From Candidatus Omnitrophota bacterium (GTDB lineage Bacteria > Omnitrophota > Gorgyraeia > VGKH01), in contig JBDRFF010000015.1 in the NCBI GenBank assembly GCA_043819095.1, positions 1 through 61,691 of the forward strand: a stretch of 61,691 bases of DNA, in the 5' to 3' direction. Positions within the stretch are counted from its first letter, which is position 1. The number at the start of each line of letters is the position of its first letter. The position numbers were made by a program, and so were the translations under genes. Positions 17,540 through 61,485 of this stretch are shown one piece after another. The notes below the pieces were generated by a model. It was not told where the DNA came from. It saw only the letters and a list, made by a program, of their open reading frames with translations, and searched no databases.

Positions 17540-17758
17540 AATGACGACCACGATTTACGGAACGATAGTGAACGTAAATCGTATGTTCGAATTGAACCCC
17601 CCACCACTTTTAATAATGAGGCGTTCTTTTATATAAAAACGTTTATCGTCTTTTCAAATCCACCATCTTTAATTCCACGGTTGTTTCTAAAAGTGGTGGG
17701 GGGTCAAATTCAGACTTACAACTTAGCTTCGTTATCACTCGCTAAGTTGTGTCTTCAT
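17540..17758 (-). repeat. nested-palindromic intergenic element, family 1, copy A (219 bp)
   Basis: Hairpin cgatttacg/cgtaaatcg. Long stem ccccccaccactttt/aaaagtggtgggggg. Hairpin acaacttagc/gctaagttgt. Lies between the mnmE stop (17764) and the SD of the next gene. Confidence 0.85.
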
Positions 17759-17763
17759 GTGAC

Positions 17764-19167
17764 CTATTTCCCTATACAAAATTCACTAAATATCTTATCC
17801 AATAAGTCTTTTTCAATTGTTCTTCCGGTGATGGAATCTAATTCTTCGACTGCTCCTTTTAGTTCCAAACAGACAAATTCCGTGGATATTTTGCGCGAAA
17901 TCACTTCTAATGTTTTTTCAATCTGTCCTAAAGCACTCCTTAATGCCTGGATATGTCGAATATTGCTTATAAATACACTTTTTTTATCCTTAAATTTTCC
18001 CTGCCAGACATTTTTGATAATTGTATCTTCTAAATTTTTTATTCCGAATTTCTTTAGCACGGAAATTTTTACAATTTTAGAATTTTTTGCAATTGATTTT
18101 AATCTATTCGTATTTATTTTTGAGGGCAAATCAATTTTATTGATAACAAAAATTATATTTTTTCCTTTTAGATTCTTCAAAAGCATTTTATCTTTATCTG
18201 ACAATTTTTGGCTGTTATCAAACAATAAAAGTGCTAAATCGCAATTATCAATTTGAGTATGGCTTCTTTTAATTGCCTCTTTTTCAACCAAATCCTTTGG
18301 CTCGATCATTCCGGCTGTATCCACAAATCTCAAAGGAATTCCTTTTAGATTTATGATTTCCTCGACGATGTCGCGCGTTGTGCCCGGGATGTGCGTGACA
18401 ATTGCCTTTTCTTCTTTTATTAAGGTATTTAACAAAGATGATTTTCCCACATTGGTCCGGCCGCAGATTACAACATTTATTCCTTCGCGCATGATTTTGC
18501 CTTGTTCTGAAGTTTCAAGAAGATTTTCGATTTGCTTTTTAGTATTATTTAATCGCGCGAGCTGCTGTCTTAAAGGCAATCTATTGATATCTTCCTCGGG
18601 AAAATCAATTTCAGCTTCCAAATACGCTAACACTTCAACTAATTCGTTTCGGATAGATTCGATTTCGCGAGACAATTCTCCTTTAAGTTGACTAACACTA
18701 ATCTCCAATGCCTGATCGGTTTTGGCATTGATTATATCTAAAACCGCCTCGGCCTGAGCCAAATCAATACGGCCATTTATAAATGCGCGTCGGGTAAATT
18801 CCCCTGCTTCAGCTAATCTTGCGCCCATTTTGATTGTTAAATCCAAAATTTTCTTTAAAGGTAAAATTCCACTGTGGCAATTTATCTCGACAATATCTTC
18901 TTTGGTATAACTTTTCGGCGCACGCATTACAGTTAAAATTACCTCATCGATTACTTCGGACTTGCCTTTCTTGCCATTTATAATCCAGCCATAGTGCGTG
19001 GAATAAGTCTTAAATTTAGATGGCTTCTTTTTTTCTTTTGAAGCAAATATCTTATCAACAATAGGCAAGGCATCTTTGCCGCTTAGGCGCACAATGCCGA
19101 TGCCGGCCTGGCCTAAAGCAGTTGAGACTGCCGCAATTGTATCGTCAAACTTTAACAGTTCTTTCAT
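17764..19167 (-). CDS. mnmE: tRNA modification GTPase MnmE
   Basis: 467 aa. G-domain GRTNVGKSSLLN, DTAG, C-terminal CIGK. Confidence 0.9.
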   Translation of the reverse strand: MKELLKFDDTIAAVSTALGQAGIGIVRLSGKDALPIVDKIFASKEKKKPSKFKTYSTHYGWIINGKKGKSEVIDEVILTVMRAPKSYTKEDIVEINCHSGILPLKKILDLTIKMGARLAEAGEFTRRAFINGRIDLAQAEAVLDIINAKTDQALEISVSQLKGELSREIESIRNELVEVLAYLEAEIDFPEEDINRLPLRQQLARLNNTKKQIENLLETSEQGKIMREGINVVICGRTNVGKSSLLNTLIKEEKAIVTHIPGTTRDIVEEIINLKGIPLRFVDTAGMIEPKDLVEKEAIKRSHTQIDNCDLALLLFDNSQKLSDKDKMLLKNLKGKNIIFVINKIDLPSKINTNRLKSIAKNSKIVKISVLKKFGIKNLEDTIIKNVWQGKFKDKKSVFISNIRHIQALRSALGQIEKTLEVISRKISTEFVCLELKGAVEELDSITGRTIEKDLLDKIFSEFCIGK

Positions 19168-20503
19168 AATTTCTTGCCTCTCCTACAACAAATAGAGATC
19201 CAGTAACGAGTATTATATCAGTTTTTTCCTGAATTGACTTGGATAATTCCAATGCTTCTTTTACTGACGAAGTCATCTTGATTTCTTTATTTTTTCCAAA
19301 AAATTCTTTCATTTTTTCAGGGACCAAAGCGCGCGGATGGTCTGCTTTTGTAAGAATAATTGTTTTGCTTATAGGTTCTAATTCTTTGCAGATTCCTTTT
19401 ATATCTTTATCTTGTGAAATTCCTAAAACTAAAATTACTTTTTTAGAACCAAAATATTTATTAATTGTTTCTTTTAATTCTTTTGCTGAAGCAATATTCT
19501 GAGCTCCGTCGAGAATTACAAAAGAATTTCTATTAATAATCTCAAATCTGCCTGGCCAAATAGTATCATCTAAACCTTTTTTAATCGCATCGGCAGATAC
19601 GATGATACTGTGCAATCTTAAAGAATCAACGATTCCTATAGCAGTAGCTGCATTGATCAGCTGGTGATTGCCTAATAATCCTGTTCTTAAATACGTATAT
19701 TCGCTAAAACTATCAAAGCAATTAAAAACCTGGCCATTGATATCAGAAGAGATTTCTTCAAAGAATATATCTTTATTTAATAAATACAATTTTGCATCGA
19801 ATTCTTTGCAGCGTTCCTTAATAACATTTAGGGCTTCTTCCGGTTGGGACGCGCTAACTACAATCTGATTTTTATTTTTAATTATACCGGCTTTTTCTTT
19901 AGCAATAGCTGTCAGGGTCTTGCCTAATCTTTGCGTGTGTTCAAAACTTATTGGCGTAATTCCGCAGACTAAAGCATCAACCACATTGGTTGCATCGAGC
20001 CTTCCGCCGATTCCAGTTTCAAGCACTGCAAAATCCACATTTTTTTCTTTAAAATACAGAAGCGCTAAGGCTGTGTAGACTTCAAAAAAGCTTAATTCTT
20101 CATTTTTATTTTGCTGAATAAATTTTTCAATTGCAATTTTCAATTTCTCGACGTATTTACAGATATCGGGTTCAGAAATGGAACCTTCAAAATCTTTATC
20201 TTCAAAATTGTTTTCAGAGGACAAAATCCTAATCCGCTCGCGAAAGCTTCCTAAATGCGGAGAAGTATATAATCCTGTTTTAAAACCAGCTCGACGCAAA
20301 ATATAAGCAATAAACGCGCAAGTCGATCCTTTTCCTTTAGTTCCTGCGATATGAATAAATTTTATTTTCTCTTGGGGATTGTCTAGAATACTAAGAAGCT
20401 TTTTTATTCTTTCTACTTTAAAACTTTGTTGGTAGGAAAAATCGGTTAATTTTTCGTAATCAATAAAAGAATTAAGGTAACCTTGAGCTTCTTGGAAGGT
20501 CAT
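19145..20503 (-). CDS. folC: folylpolyglutamate synthase / dihydrofolate synthase
   Basis: 452 aa. P-loop HIAGTKGKGST and Mur-ligase-type domains. Confidence 0.85.
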   Translation of the reverse strand: MTFQEAQGYLNSFIDYEKLTDFSYQQSFKVERIKKLLSILDNPQEKIKFIHIAGTKGKGSTCAFIAYILRRAGFKTGLYTSPHLGSFRERIRILSSENNFEDKDFEGSISEPDICKYVEKLKIAIEKFIQQNKNEELSFFEVYTALALLYFKEKNVDFAVLETGIGGRLDATNVVDALVCGITPISFEHTQRLGKTLTAIAKEKAGIIKNKNQIVVSASQPEEALNVIKERCKEFDAKLYLLNKDIFFEEISSDINGQVFNCFDSFSEYTYLRTGLLGNHQLINAATAIGIVDSLRLHSIIVSADAIKKGLDDTIWPGRFEIINRNSFVILDGAQNIASAKELKETINKYFGSKKVILVLGISQDKDIKGICKELEPISKTIILTKADHPRALVPEKMKEFFGKNKEIKMTSSVKEALELSKSIQEKTDIILVTGSLFVVGEARNYERTVKV

Positions 20504-20514
20504 ACATGAAAAGT

Positions 20515-20725
20515 TTAATGGATGAATTGCCTCATGCCGGTAAAGACCATAGCAATCTTTGCTTTATCAGCTTCTTTGATGATTTTCTCATCCGCTACTG
20601 AGCCTCCCGGCTAGATTATAGCTTTAATCTTTGCCTTGGCAATCTGGGCTATGGCATCTTCTTTGGGAAAGAATGCATCCGATTCTAACACAGCGTCTTT
20701 GGTTCTATCTTGAGATTTCCTTAAT
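20515..20725 (-). pseudogene. decayed duplicate of the purH 3' end (last ~65 codons plus stop)
   Basis: Aligns by eye, with scattered mismatches, to 22659..~22870, starting from the TAA stop. CAG (Gln in [12 protein letters not shown]) is TAG here at 20611..20613. Confidence 0.7.
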
Positions 20726-20771
20726 TTATCTGGACACGGTCTAAGGTTTGTGTATCAATTATTAATTATTT

Positions 20772-20945
20772 TTAGAGCCCTGGCGTAACCATCATGCAAT
20801 TGTGAACCCAGATTATAATAAGAATTGAAGCCGAAACAATAGCTATAATATTTCCCGTTTGTTCCTTTTTTTTATTATTTTGCTTGCGACCACTTTTCCC
20901 TACTATTACACCTACAATAACCAGTATGATAAATATGAAATCCAA
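20772..20945 (-). CDS. possible small two-TM membrane protein (57 aa, TTG start)
   Basis: Own translation: (M)DFIFIILVIVGVIVGKSGRKQNNKKKEQTGNIIAIVSASILIIIWVHNCMMVTPGL. AAGGAGG lies 6 nt upstream of the TTG. Below the ORF-track size cutoff. Confidence 0.25.
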   Translation of the reverse strand: MDFIFIILVIVGVIVGKSGRKQNNKKKEQTGNIIAIVSASILIIIWVHNCMMVTPGL

Positions 20946-21018
20946 GAGCCACCTCCTTTCTTCTTAATTATTTCAAAAAATTCTTTTTTCATAAGCTTCG
21001 AGATGTCTCGTGATTTTT

Positions 21019-22575
21019 TCAGTGACGAGACAGCCTCTGCAAGATTTGTTGCAACCTATCAACACTATCCCAGTTGCCTTGTTTTTTATTGAGCTCCAAA
21101 GATTTCTTAATATTTCTTTTTGCTTCAGCGTTTCTACCTAAACCAAAATAACTTATTGCAAGATTTTCATATGCTTGAGTATTATCAGGTCCTAACTTGA
21201 TAGCCTTTTGTATATATGGAATAGCTGTTTTGTATTGTTTAAATTTATTATATACACCTCCCAAATTATTATATGCTCCAAAATGAGCAGGGTCAACAGC
21301 AATGGCCTTCTGATAATAATCCATTGCTCGTTGATATTGTTCTAGATTATGGTAAGCAAAACCAAGGTTGTAAATAACATCAGCATCATTAGGATCTAAC
21401 TCTAAAGCTTTTTGATAATACGGTATAGCCTCCTGATAGTAGCCAGAATGAGAATAAACATTGCCAGTATTCATAAGTACCCCATGATCATTAGGAGCTA
21501 ACTCATAAGCCTTGTTAATATATTCCATAGCATTCTGATTTTGACCAAATATGGCGAAAATAGGGGTTAAATTGCTATACAGCCCGGCTCTTAGGGCATA
21601 TCCCTCATATATGACACATTCTCGAAACAAATCATCTCTTCTTATGTCTTTGGCTAATTCAAATTTATTATTTGCTCTGGCGCGATAGATTAAATCCAAC
21701 ATAAAAGGCCTACTGGTATATTCATTGACAAAATCAATAAACATACACTGTTTATCTTTCATCCTGATTAAACAGAGATTATGTCTTAACTTCTCTAGCC
21801 GTTTTGAAGCTCCTAAAGGATCGAAAACCCAACCCTTCTGCGATTTTGCAAATCTTTCTAATGGGGCAATGTCATCTGTATATACTCCCAGGATATCTAT
21901 TCCCTTTGCTTTATGAATGATATATCCTAGAAAAGAAAAATAATTACACAGAAAAGAGATATGAACAAAATATCTTTGTTCATCTGATAAGTTATCTATT
22001 CCAAAGAAACGTGCCTTTAAAAATTCAGCTGCTTGCTCATCAACTAGCAAAGCATACAGTTTAAAATGTTCCGGATGGGGTCTCAATTTTGCATCAAGAA
22101 CGCTATCGCGGATAATGCCTTTATTTCTTTCGATGTCCTGAATAAGCTTTTTAGAATCGTTTATATCTCTATATTTAAATTTCTTATAAATTGGCAATAT
22201 AAATTCGGCGATCTGAACTGATTTCTCCGGATTATACCCCAAGTCGCAGGCTACATTGTATAACCTATCCAAAGATTTATTGGAAGGTGTATGCAATTCT
22301 CTCGTAGAGTATTTTTCTTTAGAAGAAGATAAATCCTTCTGTTGAACAAAGGGAGCCGTAGGTTCATGTACCACAACTTTACCGCCAATACTCTCTATTT
22401 CATTCAAAAAATATGTAATAGGCATACCAACGCCAATGTCCATCTTGATATACTCTTGAGTCTTTTCTAAGATACTACCTTCATATTGTTTACCAGATTT
22501 AAGAATTACGGTCTCGGCGGACGCAATGTCGCCTGATACTACTACAAAAATTACTAAACAGATTATTTTTTTCAT
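21019..22575 (-). CDS. secreted TPR-repeat protein
   Basis: Signal peptide MKKIICLVIFVVVSGDIASA. C-terminal TPR repeats (AIPYYQKALELDPNDADVIYNLGFAY..., AMDYYQKAIAVDPAHFGAYNNLG...). Confidence 0.7.
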   Translation of the reverse strand: MKKIICLVIFVVVSGDIASAETVILKSGKQYEGSILEKTQEYIKMDIGVGMPITYFLNEIESIGGKVVVHEPTAPFVQQKDLSSSKEKYSTRELHTPSNKSLDRLYNVACDLGYNPEKSVQIAEFILPIYKKFKYRDINDSKKLIQDIERNKGIIRDSVLDAKLRPHPEHFKLYALLVDEQAAEFLKARFFGIDNLSDEQRYFVHISFLCNYFSFLGYIIHKAKGIDILGVYTDDIAPLERFAKSQKGWVFDPLGASKRLEKLRHNLCLIRMKDKQCMFIDFVNEYTSRPFMLDLIYRARANNKFELAKDIRRDDLFRECVIYEGYALRAGLYSNLTPIFAIFGQNQNAMEYINKAYELAPNDHGVLMNTGNVYSHSGYYQEAIPYYQKALELDPNDADVIYNLGFAYHNLEQYQRAMDYYQKAIAVDPAHFGAYNNLGGVYNKFKQYKTAIPYIQKAIKLGPDNTQAYENLAISYFGLGRNAEAKRNIKKSLELNKKQGNWDSVDRLQQILQRLSRH

Positions 22576-22658
22576 TAAAAACCTACCTAAACCAAAAAAT
22601 AACCCCCATTTTGAGAGTTGCCTTTAAATCTGGCTTTTAACCTACCATTACTTTTAGC

Positions 22659-24218
22659 TTAATGTATGAAATGCCTCATGCCGGTAAAGACCATGGCAAT
22701 TTTTGCTTTATCAGCCGCCTTGATGATTTTTTCATCCGCTACTGATCCTCCCGGCTGGATTATTGCCTTGATCTTTGCCTTGGCAATCTGGGCGATGGCA
22801 TCTTCTTTGGGAAAGAATGCATCCGATGCTAACACCGCGCCTTTGTGTCTTCCTTTGGATTTTCTTACAGAGATTATTACGCTATCGACCCTGCTCATTT
22901 GCCCGGCGCCAACACCGACTATTTTTGTTCCTTTAGCTAAAACTATTGAATTGGATTTAACATTTTTTGCAACTTTCCAGGCAAAAAGGAGGCTGTCTAA
23001 CTGGCTTTTCGTAGGTTTGACTCTTGTAACGACTTTTAGGTCTTTTTTATCGACCATCTTTTCATCTTTATCCTGGACTAGAAGGCCGCCGCTTACTTTG
23101 CGCAGATCTAATTCTTTCTCTACCGCGTCCAAATCGATCTCAATGAGCCGAACATTTTTCTTCTGCTTTAAAATATTTAATGCTTCAGCAGAGAATTTCG
23201 GCGCGATAACACATTCTACGAATCCTGCTTTGGAAATCGCATCTGCTGTCTTTGCGTCGACATCGCGGTTTAATCCTACGATGCTGCCGAAAGCAGATAA
23301 GGAATCGCCGTCCCAGGCATCTTTAAAGGCCTGAGTTAATATTTTGGCTTCTGCGCAACCACAAGGATTTGTATGCTTGATCACAACTACTGCAGGATTT
23401 TTAAATTCTCTGACAATATTTAAGGCAGCATTTAAATCCAAAATATTATTAAAGGAGAGCTCTTTTCCATGCAGTTGTTTTACTTTTGGCAGGCCTGTTG
23501 AAGATTTTATATCTTTATAAAATGCAGCCTGCTGATGCGGATTCTCGCCGTAACGAAGGTCTTGAACTTTTGTAAAACTTAAATTAAATTGTTTTGGCAA
23601 TGTTTCAGTTATCGCTTCTGCGGTTTTTAAACGGCTATTAAGAAAACTGAAAATTACGCTATCATAATGCGAGGTACGCTGGAAAACCTCAACTGCAAGA
23701 TCTCTTAAAAGGGAGTCAGAAAGCATTCCATTATTAGTCTTTAATTCCTTAATTACCTCTTTATATTTTGCGGGATTGCAGATTACTGCTACGCTTCGAT
23801 AATTTTTTGCTGCTGAGCGAAGCATCGATGGCCCGCCGATATCGATATTCTCAATCGCTTCTGCCAAAGCAACATTTTTCTTCTGAGTCGTCTTCTCAAA
23901 AGGATATAAATTTATTACGACCATATCGATAGGTTGAATTCCGTGCTTTTTTATCTGCTCCATATGCTCTGGATTGTCTCTTACGGCCAAGAGCCCGCCG
24001 TGAATCTTAGGATGTAAAGTCTTTACTCTTCCGTCGAGCATCTCAGGAAAACCAGTGTAATCGCTGACGTCTTTAACGGGAATATTAGAGTTTCTTATTA
24101 ATTTGGCTGTGCCGCCAGTTGAAAGTATCTCAACGCCGAGTTTGGAAATCTCCTTTGCGAATTCAACTATTCCTGATTTATCCGATACGCTTATCAATGC
24201 TCGCTTAACCTTGATCAT
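22659..24218 (-). CDS. purH: bifunctional AICAR transformylase / IMP cyclohydrolase
   Basis: 519 aa. MGS-like N-domain ALISVSDKSG...GGTAKL and a conserved C-terminal AICARFT domain. Confidence 0.95.
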   Translation of the reverse strand: MIKVKRALISVSDKSGIVEFAKEISKLGVEILSTGGTAKLIRNSNIPVKDVSDYTGFPEMLDGRVKTLHPKIHGGLLAVRDNPEHMEQIKKHGIQPIDMVVINLYPFEKTTQKKNVALAEAIENIDIGGPSMLRSAAKNYRSVAVICNPAKYKEVIKELKTNNGMLSDSLLRDLAVEVFQRTSHYDSVIFSFLNSRLKTAEAITETLPKQFNLSFTKVQDLRYGENPHQQAAFYKDIKSSTGLPKVKQLHGKELSFNNILDLNAALNIVREFKNPAVVVIKHTNPCGCAEAKILTQAFKDAWDGDSLSAFGSIVGLNRDVDAKTADAISKAGFVECVIAPKFSAEALNILKQKKNVRLIEIDLDAVEKELDLRKVSGGLLVQDKDEKMVDKKDLKVVTRVKPTKSQLDSLLFAWKVAKNVKSNSIVLAKGTKIVGVGAGQMSRVDSVIISVRKSKGRHKGAVLASDAFFPKEDAIAQIAKAKIKAIIQPGGSVADEKIIKAADKAKIAMVFTGMRHFIH

Positions 24219-24235
24219 AACAGAAGCTCCTTTCT

Positions 24236-24418
24236 AATGAGTAGACAATTTACGGAAGTGAAAACGACGTAAATTGTAGGTCGAAGACCGTCTGCGAATT
24301 TGACCCCCCACCACTTTTCTTCATTTGTACAATATGCAAAAAGTGGTGGGGGGTGTATTCAGCCAGCGACTTATGTTCCTCCGACGATACGTCGGAGTCC
24401 ATAAGTCGCGGCTTCATT
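24236..24418 (-). repeat. family 1 element, copy B (183 bp)
   Basis: acaatttacg/cgtaaattgt; ccccccaccactttt/aaaagtggtgggggg with a 20-nt loop; gcgacttatg/cataagtcgc. Lies between the stop of the YchF-like gene and the purH SD. Confidence 0.85.
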
Positions 24419-25118
24419 ACACATTAAACCTAAATTTAATCAAATCCCCGTCTTCTACCACGTATTCTTTGTCTTCCAGGTGCATCAGACCTTGAGATTT
24501 TGCCTGATTTAATCCACCGTGTTTTATTATGTCTTCATAGCCGACAATTTCTGCCTTAATAAATCCTCTCTGGATATCTGAATGGATACAGCCTGCGGCA
24601 TCAAGAGCTGTTGTGCCTTTTTTTGTCGACCAGGCTCTAAGCTCTTTCTCGTTAGATGTAAAAAATGATATATATCCGGATAATTCGTAAATATTTTTAA
24701 TTATCTCATTGTGAGAATTTGCTTTATCTTGAGGAACGAGTGAAACCGGCTTTAAACTCGGCAGTCCTAAATTCGATAAAATTAATTTTTCCTCGTCAGT
24801 GAAATTTAATTCATTTAATAATGTTTCTTTCTCTAATTCTGCCTGGCAACGGGAAAGCAATTGTTTTTCTTTCTCATCGGAAGATTGATTGAGCCTTTTT
24901 TCAATAAAATCTAAATCACTTATGATTAAATCAGTTTTTTTATCTTCTAAACAGATTATTGCGTCGGATTCTTGTAGTTTAGAATCGTCAAAAAAATCTA
25001 TAGATATATAAACTATTTTGGGAGAATGAAGTAGTTCTTTTAACTTCTCTAGGCGTTCGTCGGAAAAAACCTTTTTTCCGAGGGGAAATTCCGGGATACC
25101 TAAAACTGCGACTTTCAC
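24417..25118 (-). CDS. YchF C-terminal (DUF933/TGS-like) domain protein without a recognisable P-loop
   Basis: C-terminus AAGCIHSDIQRGFIKAEIV...DGDLIKFRFNV matches the YchF C-domain. The N-terminus MKVAVLGIPEFPLGKK lacks GxxxxGKS. Confidence 0.55.
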   Translation of the reverse strand: MKVAVLGIPEFPLGKKVFSDERLEKLKELLHSPKIVYISIDFFDDSKLQESDAIICLEDKKTDLIISDLDFIEKRLNQSSDEKEKQLLSRCQAELEKETLLNELNFTDEEKLILSNLGLPSLKPVSLVPQDKANSHNEIIKNIYELSGYISFFTSNEKELRAWSTKKGTTALDAAGCIHSDIQRGFIKAEIVGYEDIIKHGGLNQAKSQGLMHLEDKEYVVEDGDLIKFRFNV

Positions 25119-25124
25119 GTTAAT

Positions 25125-27573: not shown

Positions 27574-27601
27574 ACTTCCTCCTTGTTATCGAGGTTACTA
27601 T

Positions 27602-34570: not shown

Positions 34571-34691
34571 ACGTTGAAAAAGGGTAAACCATCTGTAAAG
34601 ATGGGGCACAAAGCTAAGGACCCCGACGTCCCGACGATAAGTCGGGATTCCGACTGAAACGTCGGAATCGGGGCAGCCTAGCTGCCAGCGT
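34571..34691 (+). promoter_or_regulatory. c-di-GMP-I (GEMM-I)-like riboswitch aptamer
   Basis: AGGGUAAACC-[AUCU-GUAA-AGAU]-GGGGCACAAAGCUAAGG parallels Vc2 AGGGCAAACC-[AUUC-GAAA-GAGU]-GGGACGCAAAGCCUCCGG. P1 acguug/cagcgu closes the aptamer. The second arm gcuaagg...ccuagc encloses a branched insert. Confidence 0.65.
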
Positions 34692-34801: not shown

Positions 34802-35923
34802 ATGAGAAACAAAGGTTTTACGACAATGGAAATGATGGTTGTGGCGGCGATAGGCGCAGGGCTACTTGCTATTGTCTTTAGCATATTTATGCTCCTCAAT
34901 ACCTCTCTTACAAAGGGCTTTAGCTCCATAGATTTAGTAGAGAAATCCCGCATCGCAATGGAACAAATCCAGCGATATTTGGAAAAATCCAGCCCTGAGA
35001 AGATTACCATTCAAAACTGTCTGGGAAACGAATGCAGTGGCCAGAAGCTTACATTCCAGGTTCCTGTGGTTACTAATGACGCGATTAGCGGAACAGTATT
35101 CAACTATTATGGTAACCCTAAATGGGGTGCTTTCTGGACAAAAGCCAACGGTAACTTTGCAACTAGAGAAAACGCCTATTTTACTTTTTACGCAGGTGCT
35201 GAAGGCACTGCAGACGAAGGAAAATTAATTATAAAGGTATGGCATACGGAAACAACCGGAGGAACCCCCGGTTGTTTTCTTGCCGGAACACCCATACTTA
35301 TGGCTGATGGCTCTAGGAAGCCTATTGAGGAAATAAAGGTAGGCGATGAAGTTTTAGCCTATAATGAAGAAACTGCTACGACTCAGAAGGATAAGGTAAC
35401 AAAGTTATTTGTACACGAGGATATTGAAGGATATCTTATAGTCAACGGAAATCTAAAAGTTACCCCTGAACACCGTTTTTACAGCCAAGAAAAATGGATT
35501 GAAATCGGCTCTCTAAAAGTCGGTGATAAGCTGCTTGATTACAAAGGCCAGACTCAGGAAATCACCAGCATAGAAAAAGTTAAAGAAAAAACCACGGTTT
35601 ATAATTTCGAGGTAGAACCATCTCATACTTATTTTGCAGGGGGATTCTTAGTACATAATGTAAAACTCTATGAGAGTGAATTAGCTGATCCTCCGGGTTC
35701 TACCAAATTATTTAGAGAGCTATTTTCTCCCGCAATAGCCTATGCTGACACAACTACAGTAATTGACGATAAAAAAACAATAGTCGATCATATAGATAAT
35801 ATAGAATTTGATGGGGGAACTAATAACCAGACGATAGTCATAGAAGCTACATTTGTTGTAGATGACCCTCAGCAAGGCGAAAATGAGAAGATCTACAAAA
35901 CTACAATTAGTCCTAGGAATTAA
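34802..35923 (+). CDS. prepilin-type protein with an embedded Hint (mini-intein/BIL-like) domain
   Basis: Class III signal MRNKG|FTTMEMMVVAAIGAGLLAIV (Glu+5). Residues 158-286 run CFLAGTPILMADG...VTPEHRF...VYNFEVEPSHTYFAGGFLVHN|V. Confidence 0.8.
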   Translation: MRNKGFTTMEMMVVAAIGAGLLAIVFSIFMLLNTSLTKGFSSIDLVEKSRIAMEQIQRYLEKSSPEKITIQNCLGNECSGQKLTFQVPVVTNDAISGTVFNYYGNPKWGAFWTKANGNFATRENAYFTFYAGAEGTADEGKLIIKVWHTETTGGTPGCFLAGTPILMADGSRKPIEEIKVGDEVLAYNEETATTQKDKVTKLFVHEDIEGYLIVNGNLKVTPEHRFYSQEKWIEIGSLKVGDKLLDYKGQTQEITSIEKVKEKTTVYNFEVEPSHTYFAGGFLVHNVKLYESELADPPGSTKLFRELFSPAIAYADTTTVIDDKKTIVDHIDNIEFDGGTNNQTIVIEATFVVDDPQQGENEKIYKTTISPRN

Positions 35924-44740: not shown

Positions 44741-44752
44741 TTCTCCTCCTTT

Positions 44753-44911
44753 AAAGACGACACAACTTATGGAGTCCCATGACGACATAAGTTGTAGGTC
44801 GGAATTGAACCCCGCCCTTTTGGCAGAACATAATTTTATCCTCGCCAAAAGGGCGGGGTTAGTTCGAATACACAACTTACGTCGCTAACGCTCCGTAAGT
44901 TGTATTCTCAC
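44753..44911 (-). repeat. family 1 element, copy C (159 bp)
   Basis: acaacttatg/cataagttgt; ccccgcccttttggc/gccaaaagggcgggg (compensated stem variant); acaacttacg/cgtaagttgt. Confidence 0.85.
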
Positions 44912-44936
44912 TAATTTTACCATCTGAACATTTAAA

Positions 44937-45050
44937 GTCAACACATTCGTATAGCACACAAGCATTGAAAATTAATTTCTATATTATCTCTACTCAGTGT
45001 TGATACTGAGAGCGACCCCAAAGTAACTTCGGGGTCGCCGAATGTATCAA
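44937..45050 (-). repeat. family 2 element, copy 2 (114 bp)
   Basis: Same termini and central cagtgttgatactgag as copy 1. A different but perfectly paired hairpin gcgacccc...ggggtcgc. Abuts the hypD stop codon. Confidence 0.65.
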
Positions 45051-49650: not shown

Positions 49651-49816
49651 GAAAGAAGGTCCTTCTCTTCAAACTATTAAAACTGTAGAAGCTCGGGATT
49701 AATTTTGGCTAATACTTATGTCGCTTCGCTCCATAAGCGTAAGCCAAACTAAGCGGGGACGACGGGTCCGGCTTCGCCTTATGGTATATAAGAAAAACTC
49801 TGACGGCTTCGCCGGA

Positions 49817-50071
49817 TCACCGCAATGCCGCCAGTCTTCGCCTTAAAAAGGCTCTGCCTGAATGACTCTTTAAATATAATTCAAATTCTTCTGCTAATTT
49901 CTTATTAGAAAATACAATATATGTTTCTAATTCCCAAGGGGCGTATCTATAGGTATAAGAATTTTTAGGTGGGCCTTTGTGTTCTGCGAGGCGTCTTTGA
50001 AGATTATCGGTATACCCTATATAAAATTTGCTTTTATTTTTCTTGCTTATGAGGATATATACGCAATACAT
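49817..50071 (-). CDS. stand-alone GIY-YIG nuclease-domain protein
   Basis: MYCVYILISKKNKSKFYIGYTDNLQRRLAEHKG is the GIY-YIG core. The track ORF extends to 50098. Confidence 0.75.
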   Translation of the reverse strand: MYCVYILISKKNKSKFYIGYTDNLQRRLAEHKGPPKNSYTYRYAPWELETYIVFSNKKLAEEFELYLKSHSGRAFLRRRLAALR

Positions 50072-50122
50072 ATTTTTGTGAAAGCCAGGCGGAGCCAAAG
50101 ACGAAAGTTCTTTGGCGAAGAC

Positions 50123-50201
50123 TGGCGGGGACGACGGGATTCGAACCCGCGATCTTCAGATCGACAATCTGACGCGTTAAACCAAACTACGCTACGTCCC
50201 C
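50123..50201 (-). tRNA. tRNA-Asp (anticodon GUC), CCA encoded
   Basis: Hand-folded cloverleaf. Acceptor ggggacg/cgtcccc, anticodon arm tcaga-ttGTCga-tctga, T-loop ttcgaat. Confidence 0.9.
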
Positions 50202-52372: not shown

Positions 52373-52386
52373 TTCATTCCTCCTTC

Positions 52387-52605
52387 AATGAGACCGTGAC
52401 TTACGCGACTGCTAAAGGAGCGTAAGCCATTTGGTCGAATTAAACCCACCACCACTTTTAGTAATGAGGCGTTCTTTTTACATAAAACGTTTATCTTCTT
52501 TTCAAACCCACCACTTTAATTCTACAGTAGTTTCTAAAAGTGGTGGGGGTCAAACTCAGACAAACAACTTACGTTCACTTTCGCTCCGTAAGTTGTGTCT
52601 TCGTT
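52387..52605 (-). repeat. family 1 element, copy D (219 bp)
   Basis: cttacgc/gcgtaag; cccaccaccactttt/aaaagtggtggggg; acaacttacg/cgtaagttgt. The central ~70 nt is homologous to copy A. Overlaps the last 10 codons of ntpI. Confidence 0.85.
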
Positions 52606-54341
52606 TTAAATGGTACGTATGGAGATCCTGACCATTCCATACCGAGATGACTTGAGAATTCTAAGACATTTAATCTGAGTCCGTGCACCAAAATAGACAT
52701 GGCGCCTAAGGCTATATTTAAAGTATGACCAAGAAGTAAAATTATAACGGTTATTACTCCGCCTAGGATACCGTCTCCTACGCCTGCGGCCATCTGATTG
52801 AATGCATCTGCCACTGCAACGGTGGCAGTGCCTATGGCAAATAATCGAATGTAAGAAACCACATCAGTAAAACTACTGACGGCGTTGAGAAGAAAATCCT
52901 TAAATCCCAATCCTACGCTTTTAAAAACATTTCTCGAGGGATTGCTAAATAATACTATAAGGCCGGCTCCGACGATAAAAAGCCATTTGGCAAAAACAGG
53001 AAACACCTCGCTTAAAATCAACATCCGCGCCAGAAAGAACGCGCCCCAAAGCATGCATATCCAGCCTATCTCACTTAAACTCTTAAGATGCGGCATCTTC
53101 ATCAATCCTTTCCACAGATGCGCGATGCTTAAGTGTAGCGCCCCGATAAAAAAGCACAATGCCTGCATATTCCTACTGTTATTTAAAGAAGGCATCAACG
53201 GCTCAATGCGCTGCACAAGCCAGGCCTGGCCAAAGAAAGTGCCGGTAAGCACGCCCCAGATTATCGCGGTCGCACTTAATATATACATCAGAGAAAAAAT
53301 TCGCGTATCCTTAAGAGTCTTATTTAATTTTCTGTGCAGGAAAAGATTCAGAAGCAATACTATTACGCCATAACCGGCATCTCCTATCAATATCCCGAAA
53401 AACACAGAGAAAAATAACAAAAACCATAGACTTATATCTACCTCTTTGTATCCAGGCAAAGCCTTTATAATATCAAATACAGGTTTGATTATCTGGACCC
53501 AGCGAGGATTTCTGATCAATGTCGGCACATTATCATTTATGTCGGGCTCTTCAATAAGAAGGCCCCATCTTTCGTGGCTTGACTTTTCTTCCAGAAGCAC
53601 AACCGAATCATAAGGAATATATCCCCGCACATAAGAAAGCATTTCGGATTTCCCCGCGCCTACCAAGGTTTCCTGAAACTGCAAAATCGATTCCAGGCGC
53701 TCTTGATAATCATTCAATGCTCTTTTGTATTGTGCGTAAATATGAATTTTTTCATCGATCTTCTTTATCTTTTCTCGGTCACTATTTTGTTTTTTTAATA
53801 CGCTACCCAATCTTTCTTTGGGCAGTTCCAAAACCTCAAAAGGTACTTTTATATCTCTTTGAGAAATCAATGCGCAATAGAGAGAGCTACTTTTTTTAAA
53901 TAGAATCTGCGTAACTATATCCTCGGGGATCTCTTTTTTTCTTTTTTCGGGAATTACGGCGAGATGAACTCGTAAATTTTTATTTTTAAAATATTCGATA
54001 AGTGCGGGATCAAAATCGCCCCATTCCTGCCAGCGGTCGATATGCCTCTGTCTTTTAAGCATATCATCCTGAATGCGTTTCTTTTCTTTTAAGGCGCTGA
54101 CTATTTCGTCTGCTATGTGCTGTTCATTGCCTCGTAAATGCTTTTGCGTCTCAGTATCCGCAAGTACTGCAGTTGCCTGTGCAACGCGCATCATCTCAAG
54201 CTTAAGCCTTTGTACTTCGTCTCCCACAGGAACATTCTGGTGTTCCACATGCAAAACTCCTAAATCTCGCAGCGACTTCAGAGTTTCTTTAGTATCCTTT
54301 GATTGCACAACCACAGTTATTTTTTTCATCGGGACTATCAT
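52575..54341 (-). CDS. ntpI: V-type ATPase subunit I
   Basis: 588 aa. Soluble coiled N-half plus a multi-TM C-half. The final codons KTKTQLTERK and the stop lie inside repeat copy D. Confidence 0.85.
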   Translation of the reverse strand: MIVPMKKITVVVQSKDTKETLKSLRDLGVLHVEHQNVPVGDEVQRLKLEMMRVAQATAVLADTETQKHLRGNEQHIADEIVSALKEKKRIQDDMLKRQRHIDRWQEWGDFDPALIEYFKNKNLRVHLAVIPEKRKKEIPEDIVTQILFKKSSSLYCALISQRDIKVPFEVLELPKERLGSVLKKQNSDREKIKKIDEKIHIYAQYKRALNDYQERLESILQFQETLVGAGKSEMLSYVRGYIPYDSVVLLEEKSSHERWGLLIEEPDINDNVPTLIRNPRWVQIIKPVFDIIKALPGYKEVDISLWFLLFFSVFFGILIGDAGYGVIVLLLNLFLHRKLNKTLKDTRIFSLMYILSATAIIWGVLTGTFFGQAWLVQRIEPLMPSLNNSRNMQALCFFIGALHLSIAHLWKGLMKMPHLKSLSEIGWICMLWGAFFLARMLILSEVFPVFAKWLFIVGAGLIVLFSNPSRNVFKSVGLGFKDFLLNAVSSFTDVVSYIRLFAIGTATVAVADAFNQMAAGVGDGILGGVITVIILLLGHTLNIALGAMSILVHGLRLNVLEFSSHLGMEWSGSPYVPFKTKTQLTERK

Positions 54342-54955: not shown

Positions 54956-54987
54956 GGAGCCACCATCGCTTCCTTGTTTGTGGCGAC

Positions 54988-55030: not shown

Positions 55031-55033
55031 AAA

Positions 55034-59238: not shown

Positions 59239-59307
59239 GATACACCCCTTGTTTACAACTTATTTTATTCTTCTTAATTCTTATATTTAAGAGTGGAAAG
59301 TGGATAT

Positions 59308-59336
59308 ATTTTACACTAAAATCTATACTTTTGCAA
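59308..59336 (-). promoter_or_regulatory. sigma70-like promoter of the V-ATPase operon
   Basis: Minus strand reads TTGCAA (59336..59331), a 17-nt spacer, then TAAAAT (59313..59308). Confidence 0.4.
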
Positions 59337-59362
59337 GCAGATACCGTTTAAAAATCTTGATG

Positions 59363-60022
59363 CTAATCTAGCTCTTTAAGGATATTCAGTGTGGCTTCTA
59401 AGGGGTCTTTTGCTTTTGTGATTGGTCGGCCTACGACGATAAAATCGGCGCCTGCTGAAATTGCGTCTTTGGGAGTCGCGATCCTTTTCTGATCAAAGGC
59501 CTCTGTGCCTTTTGGTCTTATCCCCGGTGTGACAATAATAAAATTCTTTCCCATTTTTTTTCTGATTGCGGCAGCTTCTTGACAAGAGCTAACTACGCCG
59601 TTGATTCTGGCTTTTTTTGCCAATTTCGCCAGCTCCATTACGCGGCGGTTTACATTTTTGCCAGCCTGGCTGGTTAGAACCGTAACAGCCACGATAAGCG
59701 GCCGGTTAATAACTTTGGCAGCGGCTTTCATCATATCTTCGCCGCCTGATGCATGAAGAGTCAACATAAAGACTTTTAATCTTCTTGCTTCTTCGACTGC
59801 GCTTTTTACCGTATTGGGAATATCATGATACTTAAGGTCCAAAAATACCTTTGCTCCCTTTTTGCGAATCACGTTTATAGCCTCCGGCCCGCAGGCTGAA
59901 AATAACTGACTGCCCACTTTAAAGATTTTTACCGTCGGATAAAGAATATTAAGCAGGCGCTTTGCTCTTTGCAGTGTATCTACATCTAAAGCTACGATTA
60001 ATTTATCTTTAAACTTTTTCAT
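59363..60022 (-). CDS. pyrF: orotidine 5'-phosphate decarboxylase
   Basis: LDLKYHDIPNT motif, 219 aa. Confidence 0.9.
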   Translation of the reverse strand: MKKFKDKLIVALDVDTLQRAKRLLNILYPTVKIFKVGSQLFSACGPEAINVIRKKGAKVFLDLKYHDIPNTVKSAVEEARRLKVFMLTLHASGGEDMMKAAAKVINRPLIVAVTVLTSQAGKNVNRRVMELAKLAKKARINGVVSSCQEAAAIRKKMGKNFIIVTPGIRPKGTEAFDQKRIATPKDAISAGADFIVVGRPITKAKDPLEATLNILKELD

Positions 60023-60930
60023 TTCATTGCTCCGATCAATTTATTAATATCCTTTATATTATTGGCTTTTAAATATTTTTTTATACCTTCAATTATCTCG
60101 ACAGTGGCTTTAGGATTTACGAAATTAGCTGTGCCTACAGCAACGGCTGTTGCGCCAGCAATAATAAATTCCAAGGCATCCTCTGTATTCATAATCCCGC
60201 CCATACCGATTATCGGTATTTCTGCTGTATGTGCAGCTTGCCAGACCATTCGAAGCGCAATAGGTTTAATCGCAGGCCCGCTCAAACCACCTGTTATATT
60301 TGCTAATTTGGGGCTTTTAGTATCTGCATCGATTGCTATTGCCGAAAAAGTATTGACCAAGCTTATGGCATCGGTATCAGCTGCCACCGTAGCCCTAGCG
60401 ATTAATCCGATATCTGTAACATTTGGTGATAATTTGGTTATTAGGGTAAGCTTTGTAGTTTTACGCACTGCCTTAACCAGCCGATAAGTTGCTTTATCCG
60501 ACTGGGCAACTAATTTTTCTGTCCCAAGATTTGGGCAGGATAAATTTAATTCGATTGCAGATACACCTTTGGTCTTGCTTAAAATCTTTGCTAATTCTGT
60601 AAATTCTTTATCATTATCGCCAGAGATACTAACGATAATTGGGACGCCGATTTTTCTTAGAATAGGTAATTTTTCTTTCAGGAAGACTTTTACGCCAGGA
60701 TTTTCTAAGCCAATGGAATTAAGCATTCCTGATGCGGTCTCGACGGTGCGCGGAGGAGGATTGCCTTTCTTTGACTTTAGAGTAATTGTCTTTGTGATGA
60801 GCGCGCCTAATATTTTTGGATTTATCAGCGAAGAGGTCTCTTTAGCGTATTCGAATGTCCCTGATGCAACCATCACAGGATTTTTTAATTTAACTTTTCC
60901 GATTTTTACTGATAAATTAGGATTTTTCAT
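60019..60930 (-). CDS. pyrD: dihydroorotate dehydrogenase catalytic subunit (class 1B)
   Basis: GLENPG, NLSCPN and GGI motifs. A pyrK fragment lies upstream. Confidence 0.9.
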   Translation of the reverse strand: MKNPNLSVKIGKVKLKNPVMVASGTFEYAKETSSLINPKILGALITKTITLKSKKGNPPPRTVETASGMLNSIGLENPGVKVFLKEKLPILRKIGVPIIVSISGDNDKEFTELAKILSKTKGVSAIELNLSCPNLGTEKLVAQSDKATYRLVKAVRKTTKLTLITKLSPNVTDIGLIARATVAADTDAISLVNTFSAIAIDADTKSPKLANITGGLSGPAIKPIALRMVWQAAHTAEIPIIGMGGIMNTEDALEFIIAGATAVAVGTANFVNPKATVEIIEGIKKYLKANNIKDINKLIGAMK

Positions 60931-61286
60931 TTAATTAACACCATCCTTATTCCTATAGCAATCAAAAAAACTCCAAATAATCTTTTTAATATCGTATCAG
61001 GCACTGCCTGAATATAATGTGCTCCCAGGAGTGCGCCAAAAAAGAATCCTATGCAGATAAAAGCCGCCATATTCAATTTCACATTTCCGGCATAATAATA
61101 TCTTAAAGCAGCCAAAAGTCCTATCGGTGGAATCATTATTGCTAAAGTTGTTCCTTGTGCCTGATGTTGAGTCAATCCAAACAAAAATACAAGCGCAGGA
61201 ATCAAAATTGTCCCACCACCGATTCCAAAAATTCCGCTTAAAACTCCGGCGAGTAATCCTAAAGCAATATACAAAACCAGATTCAT
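60927..61286 (-). CDS. short TauE/SafE (DUF81)-like membrane protein
   Basis: 119 aa, about 4 TM, Gly-rich GIFGIGGGTILIPALVF motif. Confidence 0.55.
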   Translation of the reverse strand: MNLVLYIALGLLAGVLSGIFGIGGGTILIPALVFLFGLTQHQAQGTTLAIMIPPIGLLAALRYYYAGNVKLNMAAFICIGFFFGALLGAHYIQAVPDTILKRLFGVFLIAIGIRMVLIK

Positions 61287-61301
61287 AATTAATCCTCCTT
61301 T

Positions 61302-61485
61302 AATAAGCGCACAATTTACGGAACGCTAGTGACGTAAATTGTATGCGCGAATTAAACCCCACACCTTTTATCTATTCAAAGTTTTTTAAAAATCCTTTCA
61401 GAGAGCTAATGAATACTAAAAAGGTGTGGGGTCAAATTCAGACAAACAACTTATGCCACGTTGTTCCATAAGTTGTGTCTTCATT
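61302..61485 (-). repeat. family 1 element, copy E (184 bp)
   Basis: acaatttacg/cgtaaattgt; ccccacacctttt/aaaaggtgtgggg (compensated variant); acaacttatg/cataagttgt. Confidence 0.85.

Follow-up and report, generated by a model that had tools for sequence, protein, structure and literature searches.

Five palindromic repeats at gene junctions of an Omnitrophota genome are probably ORF-less copies of a mobile element that carries a GIY-YIG nuclease gene in its full-length form

We analyzed a stretch of 61,691 nucleotides from a Candidatus Omnitrophota bacterium (contig JBDRFF010000015.1; hereafter the window) and conclude, with a probability of roughly 0.7, that five repeats within it are MITE-like copies, lacking an open reading frame (ORF), of a mobile element found across the phylum Omnitrophota. 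The best explanation as a whole, held with the same confidence, is an insertion element of composite, palindromic build with a wide distribution in this phylum. The full element consists of an arm, an inverted-repeat (IR) half, a stand-alone GIY-YIG nuclease gene (77-80 aa), the other IR half and a second, inverted arm, and in ORF-less copies the two IR halves close up to form a central stem. The window features are listed below, and the arms are given with their scores against a covariance model, R1, whose training set of 38 modules comprised 3 arms of the window and 35 modules of other genomes.

Element A, 17533-17766, minus strand, ORF-less, between mnmE and a membrane-protein gene; the element proper spans about 17538-17762
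Element A start-side arm, 17533-17600, minus strand, R1 match, 69.3 bits
Element A stop-side arm, 17700-17766, plus strand, R1 match, 62.2 bits
Element A IR halves, 17597-17611 and 17689-17703, CCCCCCACCACTTTT / AAAAGTGGTGGGGGG
Element B, 24229-24425, minus strand, ORF-less, between a ychF-like gene and purH
Element B arms, 24229-24307 (minus) and 24350-24425 (plus), R1 matches, 37.0 and 39.2 bits
Element B IR halves, 24304-24318 and 24339-24353
Element C, 44746-44919, minus strand, ORF-less, upstream of an lrp/asnC-type gene
Element C arms, 44746-44813 (minus) and 44854-44919 (plus), R1 matches, 61.2 and 71.6 bits
Element C IR halves, 44810-44824 and 44844-44858, CCCCGCCCTTTTGGC / GCCAAAAGGGCGGGG
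Element D, 52380-52612, minus strand, ORF-less, between the genes for V-ATPase subunits I and K
Element D arms, 52380-52448 (minus) and 52546-52612 (plus), R1 matches, 48.0 and 81.1 bits
Element D IR halves, 52445-52459 and 52536-52549
Element E, 61294-61496, minus strand, ORF-less, 8-nt direct repeats included; the element proper spans 61302-61488
Element E arms, 61295-61360 (minus) and 61428-61492 (plus), R1 matches, 80.4 and 71.9 bits
Element E IR halves, 61357-61369 and 61419-61431
Element E direct repeat of 8 nt, 61294-61301 and 61489-61496, CCTCCTTT (AAAGGAGG on the gene strand)
Stand-alone GIY-YIG cassette, possibly related, 49695-50138, minus strand, with the GIY-YIG ORF at 49817-50071 within an ORF at 49817-50098

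Each window copy is made of two hairpin modules of ~65 nt, which face outward from the central IR stem and lie on opposite strands at the two ends of the copy as terminal inverted repeats. The ends read TCAnATGA...TCATTnA, with TCAAATGA... and ...CTCATTA as element end sequences. Within a module, helix P1 is followed by a 2x2 loop (TC/TC), helix P2, a 2-nt bulge and the 10-bp helix P3 (ACAAYTTAYG/CRTAARTTGT). A preliminary description of this DNA had located the five copies to within about 8 nt of the R1 positions and had given the central stems and their differences between copies correctly. It had also placed a mere spacer between hairpin and stem; the sequence there in fact pairs with that outside the hairpin, forming the helices P1 and P2 that enclose it. 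The window elements measure 160-235 bp and have no ORF with similarity to any protein. Both arms of element B carry a small extra hairpin between P2 and P3, a three-way-junction variant. Elements A and D are 80-83% identical, including their unpaired 70-nt centre.

R1 has exactly ten strong matches in the window, two per element (37-81 bits), and the opposite strand at these positions reaches 10-26 bits where it is scored at all. The hairpin pattern occurs 6 times in the window with 0.00 occurrences expected by chance, and GAATTNRACCCC 14 times with 2.5 expected. Covariation of the paired positions, which had been claimed from the five copies alone, holds across the modules: compensatory changes are strong, 94.7-95% of cells are paired, none of 500 shuffles reaches the observed values, and changes on both sides were found in 11 of 20 and 17 of 20 pairs. 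The unpaired loop nucleotides are conserved in the module alignment as well. As a single strand, each arm gives the P1-P2-P3 fold on both strands (z -4 to -6), and the RNA fold z-scores of elements A and E are -7.5 and -8.5.

The copies had been described as lying between a stop codon and the Shine-Dalgarno (SD) sequence of the next gene. On the SD side this is true of all five, with AGGAG(G/C) directly after the downstream arm. On the stop side it applies to elements A, B, D and E, where the stop codon lies at, in or 4 nt from the arm, and not to C, where the hypD stop lies 131 nt upstream. The mnmE stop TAG (17764-17766) is at the edge of the arm of element A, and the ychF stop TAA (24417-24419) falls within P1 of the stop-side arm of element B. 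The V-ATPase subunit I frame extends 38 nt into the stop-side arm of element D and terminates there, giving an NtpI C-terminus ...PFK+TKTQLTERK whose tail is encoded by P3. At element E, the stop of the upstream ORF (61497-61499) directly precedes the left SD copy and is 4 nt beyond the model end of the arm, with the left AAAGGAGG copy between; the downstream tauE-like gene starts at 61286. A promoter-like match (44941-44914, minus strand), which is a consensus match only, abuts the outer end of element C.

That the copies are co-oriented with transcription was borne out by systematic differences between stop-side and start-side arms: of the TAAGT-type arms, 15 lie on the stop side and 3 on the start side, and of the ATTNAA-type arms 11 and 50 (p = 7e-7). 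Among 74 start-side modules, an SD-like motif begins between -2 and +8 nt relative to the P1 end in 40, of which 39 fall at -2 to +3, and in 27 the start codon is less than 7 nt from P1. The elements sit between co-oriented genes, element D within the V-ATPase gene cluster and those of locus L017 at rplR and secY junctions.

Outside the window, R1 found ~190 further modules beyond the window's ten in MAGs labelled Omnitrophota, which supports the earlier view of a dispersed MITE/REPIN-like palindromic family. Of 119 genome loci picked by the hairpin pattern, 84 have a module of at least 40 bits, and all 84 are in MAGs that are labelled Omnitrophota, bear a name beginning Planctomycet or are unclassified. 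Streptococcus, Psychromonas and similar chance matches of the pattern among the 119 loci had no module of at least 40 bits, and the covariance-model search found none in viral contigs. The genes flanking the modules nearly all differ (105 of 132 are singletons), and several IR families have ORF-less copies scattered over non-orthologous sites. Solo modules account for 42% and are well conserved (50-68 bits in a set sampled independently of modules); they are placed before start codons and between tRNA genes.

In 8 of the 9 loci examined, a stand-alone GIY-YIG nuclease ORF of 65-80 aa lies between IR halves and is flanked by two modules. We therefore regard the window copies as ORF-less (MITE-like) derivatives of such full-length copies. 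At loci L110 and L088, the IR halves of a module pair enclose the ORF (Pfam PF01541, E 3e-13 and 9e-13). In six of six further contexts, about 11 nt separate the end of a minus-strand module from the ORF that follows, and a plus-strand module starts 4-30 nt (mostly 7-10) past the ORF. The ATG directly follows the left IR half, the stop codon TAA is at the start of the right half, and in 8/8 loci the ORF points the same way as the host gene downstream. In the full-length copies the catalytic residues Y, Y, R, H and E are intact and invariant, as is a G. We found 173 relatives of the L110 protein, and all named ones belong to Omnitrophota. By sequence, the nearest solved structures are the UPF0213 proteins 1ywl and 1zg2, then I-TevI 1mk0 and SLX1. 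We infer that the GIY-YIG nuclease mobilizes the element.

Comparison with related genomes shows that elements are gained and lost quickly. The relative L220 (PurH 95% identical to that of the window at the amino acid level, about 85% nucleotide identity) lacks elements at sites A and B, and its own element sits where the window, L222 and L223 are empty. Some 21 kb of syntenic sequence (about 85% nucleotide identity) contain three polymorphic sites and no shared one. Site A reads AAATAGGAGGGCGCGATG in L220 and AAATAGG[element]AGGAGGGTGTGATG in the window. Site B is empty in L220 and L223; in L222 it holds a decayed copy, whose unusual TCATTAGA end matches that of element B. The ntpI|ntpK junction, which holds element D, is only 1-28 nt long in most of about 70 relatives; it is filled in 5 of them, with different IR families in the filled ones.

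At the filled L220 site, TAG AAGGAGG[TCAAATG...CTCATTA]AAGGAGG compares with TAA AGGAGG at the empty site of the window, and the 7-bp AAGGAGG is duplicated. The AAGGAGG repeat also flanks window element E and the elements of L214, L103, L197 and L061; copy A has only AGG and copies B-D have none. Of 57 scored elements, 9 have flanking direct repeats of 7 nt or more, with about 3 expected; 4 of the 9 are of the SD type, and L061 and L220 are SD-flanked in addition to these four. In most elements the left SD copy is reduced or absent. CCTC follows TCAAAT-type arms only (3/13 vs 0/151, p = 4e-4). Judged from these sequences, the element evidently inserts at gene junctions, at or in the SD, leaving AAGGAGG on both sides. 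One clean filled/empty pair and about six flanked elements point to the duplication at the SD, and the two AAGGAGG copies could alternatively be a native SD and an element-borne one. SD adjacency and co-orientation of the copies would follow from insertion at the SD with its duplication, since such a target is asymmetric.

The right-hand AAGGAGG with its native spacer would then still serve the downstream gene, and the upstream arm carries TAA/TGA triplets that end the upstream reading frame. The nuclease would make the break that mobilizes the element. Mobilization would proceed either through repair that copies the element into a broken target, as in homing, or through structure-specific cutting of the hairpin arms. 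Copies without the ORF may have decayed in place or been mobilized in trans; the shared centre of elements A and D argues that at least some copies spread as ORF-less units. Several points speak against this explanation. The GIY-YIG ORF encodes a catalytic domain of ~77 aa with no obvious DNA-binding domain, and GIY-YIG homing enzymes are not known for 7-bp staggered cuts. The frequent, well-conserved solo modules fit a self-standing function of the module, and a near-invariant P3 across the phylum needs frequent horizontal spread or a conserved recognition factor. Two further points, the family member P0092 and the window's own GIY-YIG gene, are taken up below. A bolder version, which we would back at somewhat worse than even odds, makes the GIY-YIG protein of 77-80 aa a transposase, that of a class of prokaryotic transposons with structured hairpin ends that has not been described before. 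Elements of this class would recognize the SD heptamer, perhaps aided by base pairing of P1 with the flank, and restore the heptamer through duplication. Such a transposon would colonize operon junctions of compact genomes without silencing the downstream gene.

Alternatively, the arms, with or without the IR hairpin, could be the primary element (an older repeat moved by another factor, or a host element), and the GIY-YIG gene could home secondarily into the loop of the central hairpin. Homing-endonuclease genes home into conserved multi-copy targets, and solo modules are common. The IR sequence tracks the ORF family, being CCCAGCACTAATTTT in elements of the L110 type and CCCTTGACATTTTG in those of the L088 type; yet these two ORFs, only about 32-34% identical, have the same arms on either side. 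P0092 keeps the IR with different flanking hairpins, and in L212 an IR-type hairpin lies within the P3 loop of an arm. The GIY-YIG cassettes of the window and L164 are both IR-bracketed at a tRNA gene whose end is duplicated. In the window, a perfect 15-bp inverted repeat (49828-49842 / 50114-50128) brackets the ORF, the cassette adjoins tRNA-Asp (50123-50201), and 14 nt of the tRNA 3' end are directly repeated (49753-49766 / 50125-50138). By tblastn, GIY-YIG queries matched the window only at 49979-50071, where 31 aa align with 52% identity to the GIY-YIG carried by the L110 element. The covariance-model scan of the window found no module pair around this ORF, whose architecture is unlike that of the canonical element, and a degenerate module-like R1 match lies nearby (49695-49757, plus strand, 23.5 bits). 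We nevertheless find it doubtful that the arms came first, as the AAGGAGG repeat flanks the whole unit including the arms, relatives differ by the presence or absence of that whole unit, several IR families have dispersed ORF-less copies, and no other candidate mobilizing gene was seen near the modules.

The preliminary description favored an RNA-level role. The modules would then be selected RNA elements in operon mRNAs: the 3' hairpin behind the stop codon and the 5' one ahead of the SD would mark where the transcript is processed, shield its ends or adjust how the following gene is translated. Lying between genes of one orientation, in the case of D within the V-ATPase gene cluster, the elements are probably co-transcribed with their neighbors. 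The strong, co-varying structure, the conserved unpaired loops, the fixed distance to the start codon and the placement of solo modules are also what this role would predict. We consider it improbable. G:T and A:C stem mismatches are about equally frequent (17 vs 22 in start-side arms, 23 vs 16 in stop-side arms), so neither arm kind has the G:U excess of RNA helices under selection, and the same module stands in sense orientation at one end and in antisense orientation at the other. In the ~85% identical relative the orthologous junctions lack the elements, as do ~65 of 70 ntpI|ntpK junctions; the flanking genes are almost all different, and full-length copies carry a nuclease gene. At the gathering threshold, Rfam 15 gave two tRNAs and a c-di-GMP-I riboswitch as the only hits in the window, and no Rfam 15 family at the elements, where generic miRNA-hairpin matches were sub-threshold. 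On the insertion-element reading, SD placement is explained by insertion, and the stable fold of a co-transcribed element in mRNA would be a side effect, not the reason for its existence; side effects on the mRNA are possible.

It is very improbable that the repeats are REP doublets (REPINs) mobilized by a RAYT or IS200-type Y1 transposase encoded elsewhere in the genome, which the preliminary description had named for their similar architecture: REPINs and REP singlets are similar in being extragenic inverted hairpin pairs and singlets with compensatory evolution and long persistence, but the Omnitrophota unit has about 65 nt and three helices compared with 20-40 nt in REPs, lacks a conserved GTAG-type 5' tetranucleotide in the module alignment, is flanked by direct repeats and contains its GIY-YIG gene inside the doublet, whereas RAYT is a separate single-copy gene flanked by repeats. 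A tblastn search of ~0.83 Mb around modules detected no such transposase, a weak negative with IS200 TnpA and E. coli RAYT queries; its only long weak match was a PEP-utilising enzyme.

Other known systems share parts of this architecture. Integron attC sites are likewise imperfect palindromes with internal loops, extrahelical bases and a variable top, co-oriented between a stop codon and the next gene. Here the elements occur in outward-facing pairs with no integrase context seen; attC sites were rejected, as the ends have no RYYYAAC/GTTRRRY core sites and the neighbors are housekeeping genes 7-17 kb apart, not cassettes. IS200/IS605 elements and PATE derivatives have hairpin-forming subterminal ends, oriented sequence-specific insertion and small ORF-less derivatives. 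Their end hairpins are on the same strand and they make no flanking duplication, unlike the inverted hairpins and flanking duplication seen here, where the ~0.83 Mb searched around modules showed no Y1 transposase. Free-standing GIY-YIG homing endonuclease genes (phage T4 seg, the I-TevI catalytic domain, UPF0213/YhbQ-type) resemble the element ORF as stand-alone ORFs between host genes, with an intact catalytic motif and a cycle of ORF gain and decay. The element ORF differs in lacking a DNA-binding domain, in its palindromic shell with hairpin arms, in its dispersal over many non-homologous junctions and in the flanking target-site-like duplication, which classical homing does not yield.

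Bacterial MITEs occur in transcribed intergenic spacers and include the Correia elements of Neisseria, ERIC/IRU of enterobacteria and RUP/BOX of pneumococcus. These too are small, non-coding elements with inverted arms, dispersed in probably co-transcribed spacers, with presence/absence polymorphism, a flanking direct repeat and the capacity to alter gene ends. The Omnitrophota family differs from them in that each arm is a three-helix hairpin whose 10-bp helix is nearly invariant, the family is found across a phylum instead of one genus, the target is the SD heptamer and not TA, and the coding relative carries a GIY-YIG nuclease and not a DDE transposase.

All five palindromic, ORF-less copies (A to E) that had been reported at gene junctions were found at the claimed positions in the window sequence, and the genes adjoining them all lie on the minus strand.

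Copies in the window and their neighboring genes
Copy A: upstream gene mnmE; downstream gene encoding a membrane protein
Copy B: upstream gene ychF-like; downstream gene purH
Copy C: upstream gene hypD; downstream gene of the lrp/asnC type
Copy D: upstream gene for V-ATPase subunit I; downstream gene for V-ATPase subunit K
Copy E: upstream ORF with an Fe-S-like motif; downstream gene tauE-like

The hairpin pattern occurred six times in the window (0 expected) and the GAATT..ACCCC motif 14 times (2.5 expected). Copies A and D share 80-83% identity, their unpaired 70-nt centre included, and the whole-element folds had z-scores of -7.5 (A) and -8.5 (E). Hairpin copies in other genomes revealed that the repeated unit is a module of ~65 nt and not the entire palindrome. 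When we scanned the window with R1, a covariance model built from 38 modules (3 window arms and 35 from other genomes), we obtained exactly ten strong matches, which form five pairs pointing outward from the central G+C-rich stem.

Parts of the module, from its outer end inward
P1: outermost helix, 5-6 bp, e.g. TTAAT/ATTAA
Internal loop: 2x2, TC/TC, inward of P1
P2: 4 bp, inward of the 2x2 loop
Bulge: 2 nt, inward of P2; a variant, seen in both arms of B, has a small hairpin here instead
P3: 10 bp, ACAAYTTAYG/CRTAARTTGT
Tip: T(T)C/TCC loop with a short top

What the preliminary description took for a spacer is really one strand of P1 and P2. Its claim that paired positions co-vary persisted as more copies were aligned: 94.7% of cells were paired in the 38 modules, with 11 of 20 pairs changed on both sides and 0 of 500 shuffles matching, and in 79 model-aligned modules, an alignment biased towards the model, the values were 95% and 17 of 20. 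In single-stranded DNA folds, each arm adopts the P1-P2-P3 shape on either strand. The near-invariant 10-bp helix and the loops point to a specific recognition factor. A promoter-like match on the minus strand (44914-44941; TTGACT, 16 nt, TAAAAT, with TG before), a consensus match only, terminates right at the outer boundary of element C; if it is real, the 5' leader of the lrp-type gene would include the whole of C.

A scan of species-representative genomes with the hairpin pattern yielded at least 119 loci. A full module (≥40 bits) was present in 84 of the 119 loci listed; 65 of these 84 are labelled Omnitrophota, and the others are unclassified MAGs or have labels beginning with Planctomycet. 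Among the loci listed, pattern matches in Streptococcus, Psychromonas, Clostridia and similar contained no module, and the nine pattern matches in IMG/VR viral contigs included no true module. The genome scan with the covariance model found modules dispersed in Omnitrophota MAGs; the window PurH is 95% identical to a metagenome protein, and its named relatives include Omnitrophica, which makes Omnitrophota the most likely origin of the window. Two window proteins had no exact match in a contig index. Outward pairs account for 92 of 176 module matches, with 74 solo and 9 tandem. Modules are not confined to protein-gene junctions, since solo modules lie between two tRNA genes (L183, 5398-5464) and next to a tRNA gene (L149, 5638-5711). 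At another locus, L017, three tandem half-units (a stem-loop plus one module, 92-nt period; 4490-4780) directly precede the secY start codon with no SD in between, and a full element stands before rplR in the same ribosomal-protein operon.

The outer end of the module abuts coding region. On the strand of the module the start codon comes next, and its distances, tabulated across genomes, fall into two modes: an SD-like motif begins -2 to +8 nt from the P1 end in 40 of 74 modules (-2 to +3 nt in 39 of these), with the start codon ~8-18 nt on, and the start codon lies <7 nt from P1 in 27 of 74. On the opposite strand, an ORF runs to a stop codon that falls within the P1 strand (mode -8). A stop/start arrangement was assigned to 30 of 46 pairs by a rough classifier, several of whose 'stop/stop' assignments were start-side arms when inspected. 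P1 of the TAAGT/ACTTA type occurred in 15 stop-side and 3 start-side arms and P1 of the ATTNAA type in 50 start-side and 11 stop-side arms (p = 7e-7 for arm type versus side), and the pair of arm types is particular to each genome. Hence, the shared orientation with transcription noticed earlier in the five copies is real, because the two arms are non-equivalent and side-specific.

Comparison with close relatives found by a PurH search (L220, L222 and L223) uncovered insertion polymorphism. L220 has ~85% DNA identity to window positions 6406-32720. At site A, L220 is empty (AAATAGGAGGGCGCGATG) and the window is filled (AAATAGG[TCACATGAAG...GTCGTCATTGA]AGGAGGGTGTGATG), with the native SD remaining on the right. 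Site B lacks an element in L220 and L223, and in L222 it holds a decayed copy with the same odd TCATTAGA end. Conversely, L220 carries an element at 5171-5400 (...TTAAATTAG AAGGAGG[TCAAATGAAGAC...GCGCTCATTA]AAGGAGG ATTAGTTG) where the window, L222 and L223 are empty (...TTAAATTAA AGGAGG CTAAACTTTG); between the filled and the empty site, the SD is duplicated over 7 bp. Window copy E lies between two copies of AAAGGAGG, the left of which directly follows the upstream stop codon, and flanks of this kind also surround elements at four other loci (L214, L103, L197 and L061). Less secure as a flanking duplication is the A-rich repeat over a TAATG-type stop/start overlap (e.g. AAAATAA in L119) of lineages whose start codon touches P1. 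An apparent rearrangement at an element in L209 versus L211 was a gene-calling artefact; the sequences are identical.

Metagenome relatives of NtpI (80, with 40-65% identity) gave about 70 ntpI-ntpK junctions for comparison; only 5 of these hold an element, and the families of the central-stem inverted repeat (IR) differ among them; most other junctions measure 1-2 nt (TAAGATG) or 12-28 nt with an SD. The last ~9 residues of the window NtpI (TKTQLTERK) are encoded by the P3 helix in an arm of D (52575-52612), and L129 shows a comparable tail, VKSTLMERK. Mini-ORFs that begin 'MKTQL...' arise from this frame behind the left SD copy, both in window copy E and in L220.

Module pairs with long centres at two loci, L110 and L088, each contain a small ORF, placed between the central-stem halves, and both ORFs encode GIY-YIG catalytic domains (PF01541, E 3e-13 and 9e-13). 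For the L110 protein, 173 relatives were found, 71-124 aa long (mostly 75-80) and 59-100% identical; the named ones are all Omnitrophota, and many are on very short contigs. The homologue search for the L088 type returned no word-sharing candidates. Six relatives of the L110 type were examined, and each is a free-standing ORF flanked by housekeeping genes (at the junctions rho-rpmE, coaE-rho, ntpD-ntpI, nadE-pqqD and surA-like gene-polX, and upstream of recX). All six ORFs are bracketed by modules, with the end of a '-' module ~11 nt ahead of the ORF and the start of a '+' module 4-30 nt (mostly 7-10) behind it; the layout is arm - CCCAGCAC(T/G)AATTTT - ATG ... TAA - AATT(A/C)GTGCTGGG - arm - SD - next gene. 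At 8 of 8 loci the ORF has the direction of the downstream gene. In a seventh relative, P0092, the IR is kept and the flanking hairpins are different. The catalytic residues are invariant, and the closest solved structures by sequence are UPF0213 proteins, followed by I-TevI and SLX1. The central stems of ORF-less copies belong to a few families common to several species, two of which match the IRs of the two ORF types, and a 400-nt centre without an intact ORF (L194) looks like a decayed coding copy. The centre shared by A and D was considered as a remnant of the nuclease ORF and rejected; it has no detectable similarity, and its sole ATG-led frame is on the wrong strand. At L216 (1412-1504), a 30-codon ORF begins at the left terminus with its ATG (TCAAATG) and overlaps the GIY-YIG start codon with its final ATGA, an arrangement that may couple their translation. 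We dropped the idea of a conserved leader peptide coupled to the nuclease ORF, because it is present in L214 and L216 without being general among the eight coding copies.

The element combines arms and IR with an optional GIY-YIG ORF, differs in presence between close relatives, is flanked in clean cases by a duplicated SD, carries stop triplets in its upstream arm and is co-oriented with genes. We class it as the combination of a MITE-like repeat and a free-standing GIY-YIG gene. We propose that the GIY-YIG nuclease makes the break that mobilises the element, that an asymmetric target would fix its orientation, and that the downstream gene would stay translated via the right-hand SD copy. The element may move by homing-like repair or by true transposition, and its arms may be recognised by the nuclease or by a host factor. 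ORF-less copies may come from decay and also from copying, the latter for some of them because A and D have a common centre.

The strongest rival holds that an older repeat is primary and that its central hairpin was secondarily invaded by the GIY-YIG gene. It is favored by the IR sequence, which follows the ORF family while the arms are common, and by an arm of L212 (11-93) in which a nested IR-type hairpin (CCCAGCCCCAATTTG...CAAATTAGGGCTGGG) replaces the top of P3, suggesting that IR hairpins can insert into hairpin loops. GIY-YIG cassettes at tRNA genes also speak for it. On the minus strand of the window, directly downstream of tRNA-Asp, a stand-alone GIY-YIG ORF (49817-50071) is enclosed by a perfect 15-bp inverted repeat, with a degenerate module alongside; it is flanked by a direct repeat of 14 nt that corresponds to the tRNA 3' end. 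This region (49695-50201) looks like a nuclease cassette inserted at the tRNA gene, and in L164 tRNA-like repeats surround a similar ORF, with a direct repeat of 43 nt. We consider this order of events unlikely, though a serious contender.

The preliminary description favored an RNA-level role. The SD-adjacent co-orientation on which it relied stands; selection for such a role is weakly supported. Helix mismatches are rare, and G:T is no commoner than A:C (17 vs 22 in start-side arms, 23 vs 16 in stop-side arms), whereas RNA-selected helices usually tolerate G:U far more than A:C. Moreover, one and the same module is sense on one side of the element and antisense on the other, and the flanking genes are almost all different (105 of 132 singletons). 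The proposed link to REPINs and RAYT is not supported: a tblastn search with RAYT/IS200 sequences in ~0.83 Mb around modules found no Y1 transposase, a weak negative, and a GIY-YIG gene lies between the IR halves instead. The one long weak RAYT/IS200 alignment, in L085, was to a PEP-utilising enzyme. Other identities were rejected: integron attC (ends without RYYYAAC/GTTRRRY core sites, housekeeping neighbors), a sigma-70 promoter (misfitting hexamers and spacing, helix covariation left unexplained), an intrinsic terminator (poor U-tract, copies inside operons), a hairpin or other self-cleaving ribozyme (helix lengths that preclude loop docking, no Rfam match) and a tRNA-like T-arm (no matching stem).

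Known insertion sequences, to our knowledge, rely on DDE, HUH, serine or tyrosine enzymes. If the GIY-YIG nuclease is the transposase, the element would represent a new class; if it drives the element, the known bacterial mobile elements would gain a GIY-YIG-based member, and one that targets ribosome-binding sites and is harmless through duplicating its target. The family is a phylum-wide marker and a source of insertion polymorphism inside Omnitrophota core operons (ribosomal-protein, secY, V-ATPase). It changes protein C-termini, as in the window NtpI, and places stable hairpins between co-oriented genes, likely in operon mRNA. Since many family members are on very short contigs, the repeats may break metagenome assemblies. 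SD-specific insertion could serve as a tool, and the recognition factor for the 10-bp helix could be identified. Rfam, at gathering and permissive thresholds, gave no relevant match at the elements and no corresponding family, and our search of Rfam and of literature on Omnitrophota, GIY-YIG, palindromic/MITE repeats, UPF0213 and SD targets found no description of the element; a 2026 preprint on complete Omnitrophota genomes (bioRxiv 10.64898/2026.06.07.730766) mentions neither palindromes, MITEs nor GIY-YIG.

Two further features of the window were observed. A c-di-GMP-I riboswitch (34573-34689, plus strand) precedes the ORF 34802-35923; its score, 54.7 bits, exceeds the gathering threshold. 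A 212-nt direct repeat with 88% identity (20512-20723 and 22656-22867) places the last ~209 nt of purH again downstream of a TPR-repeat gene (21019-22575); in L220 a folC-like gene directly follows purH and the TPR gene is absent, so the TPR gene appears to have been inserted, with duplication of the purH end.
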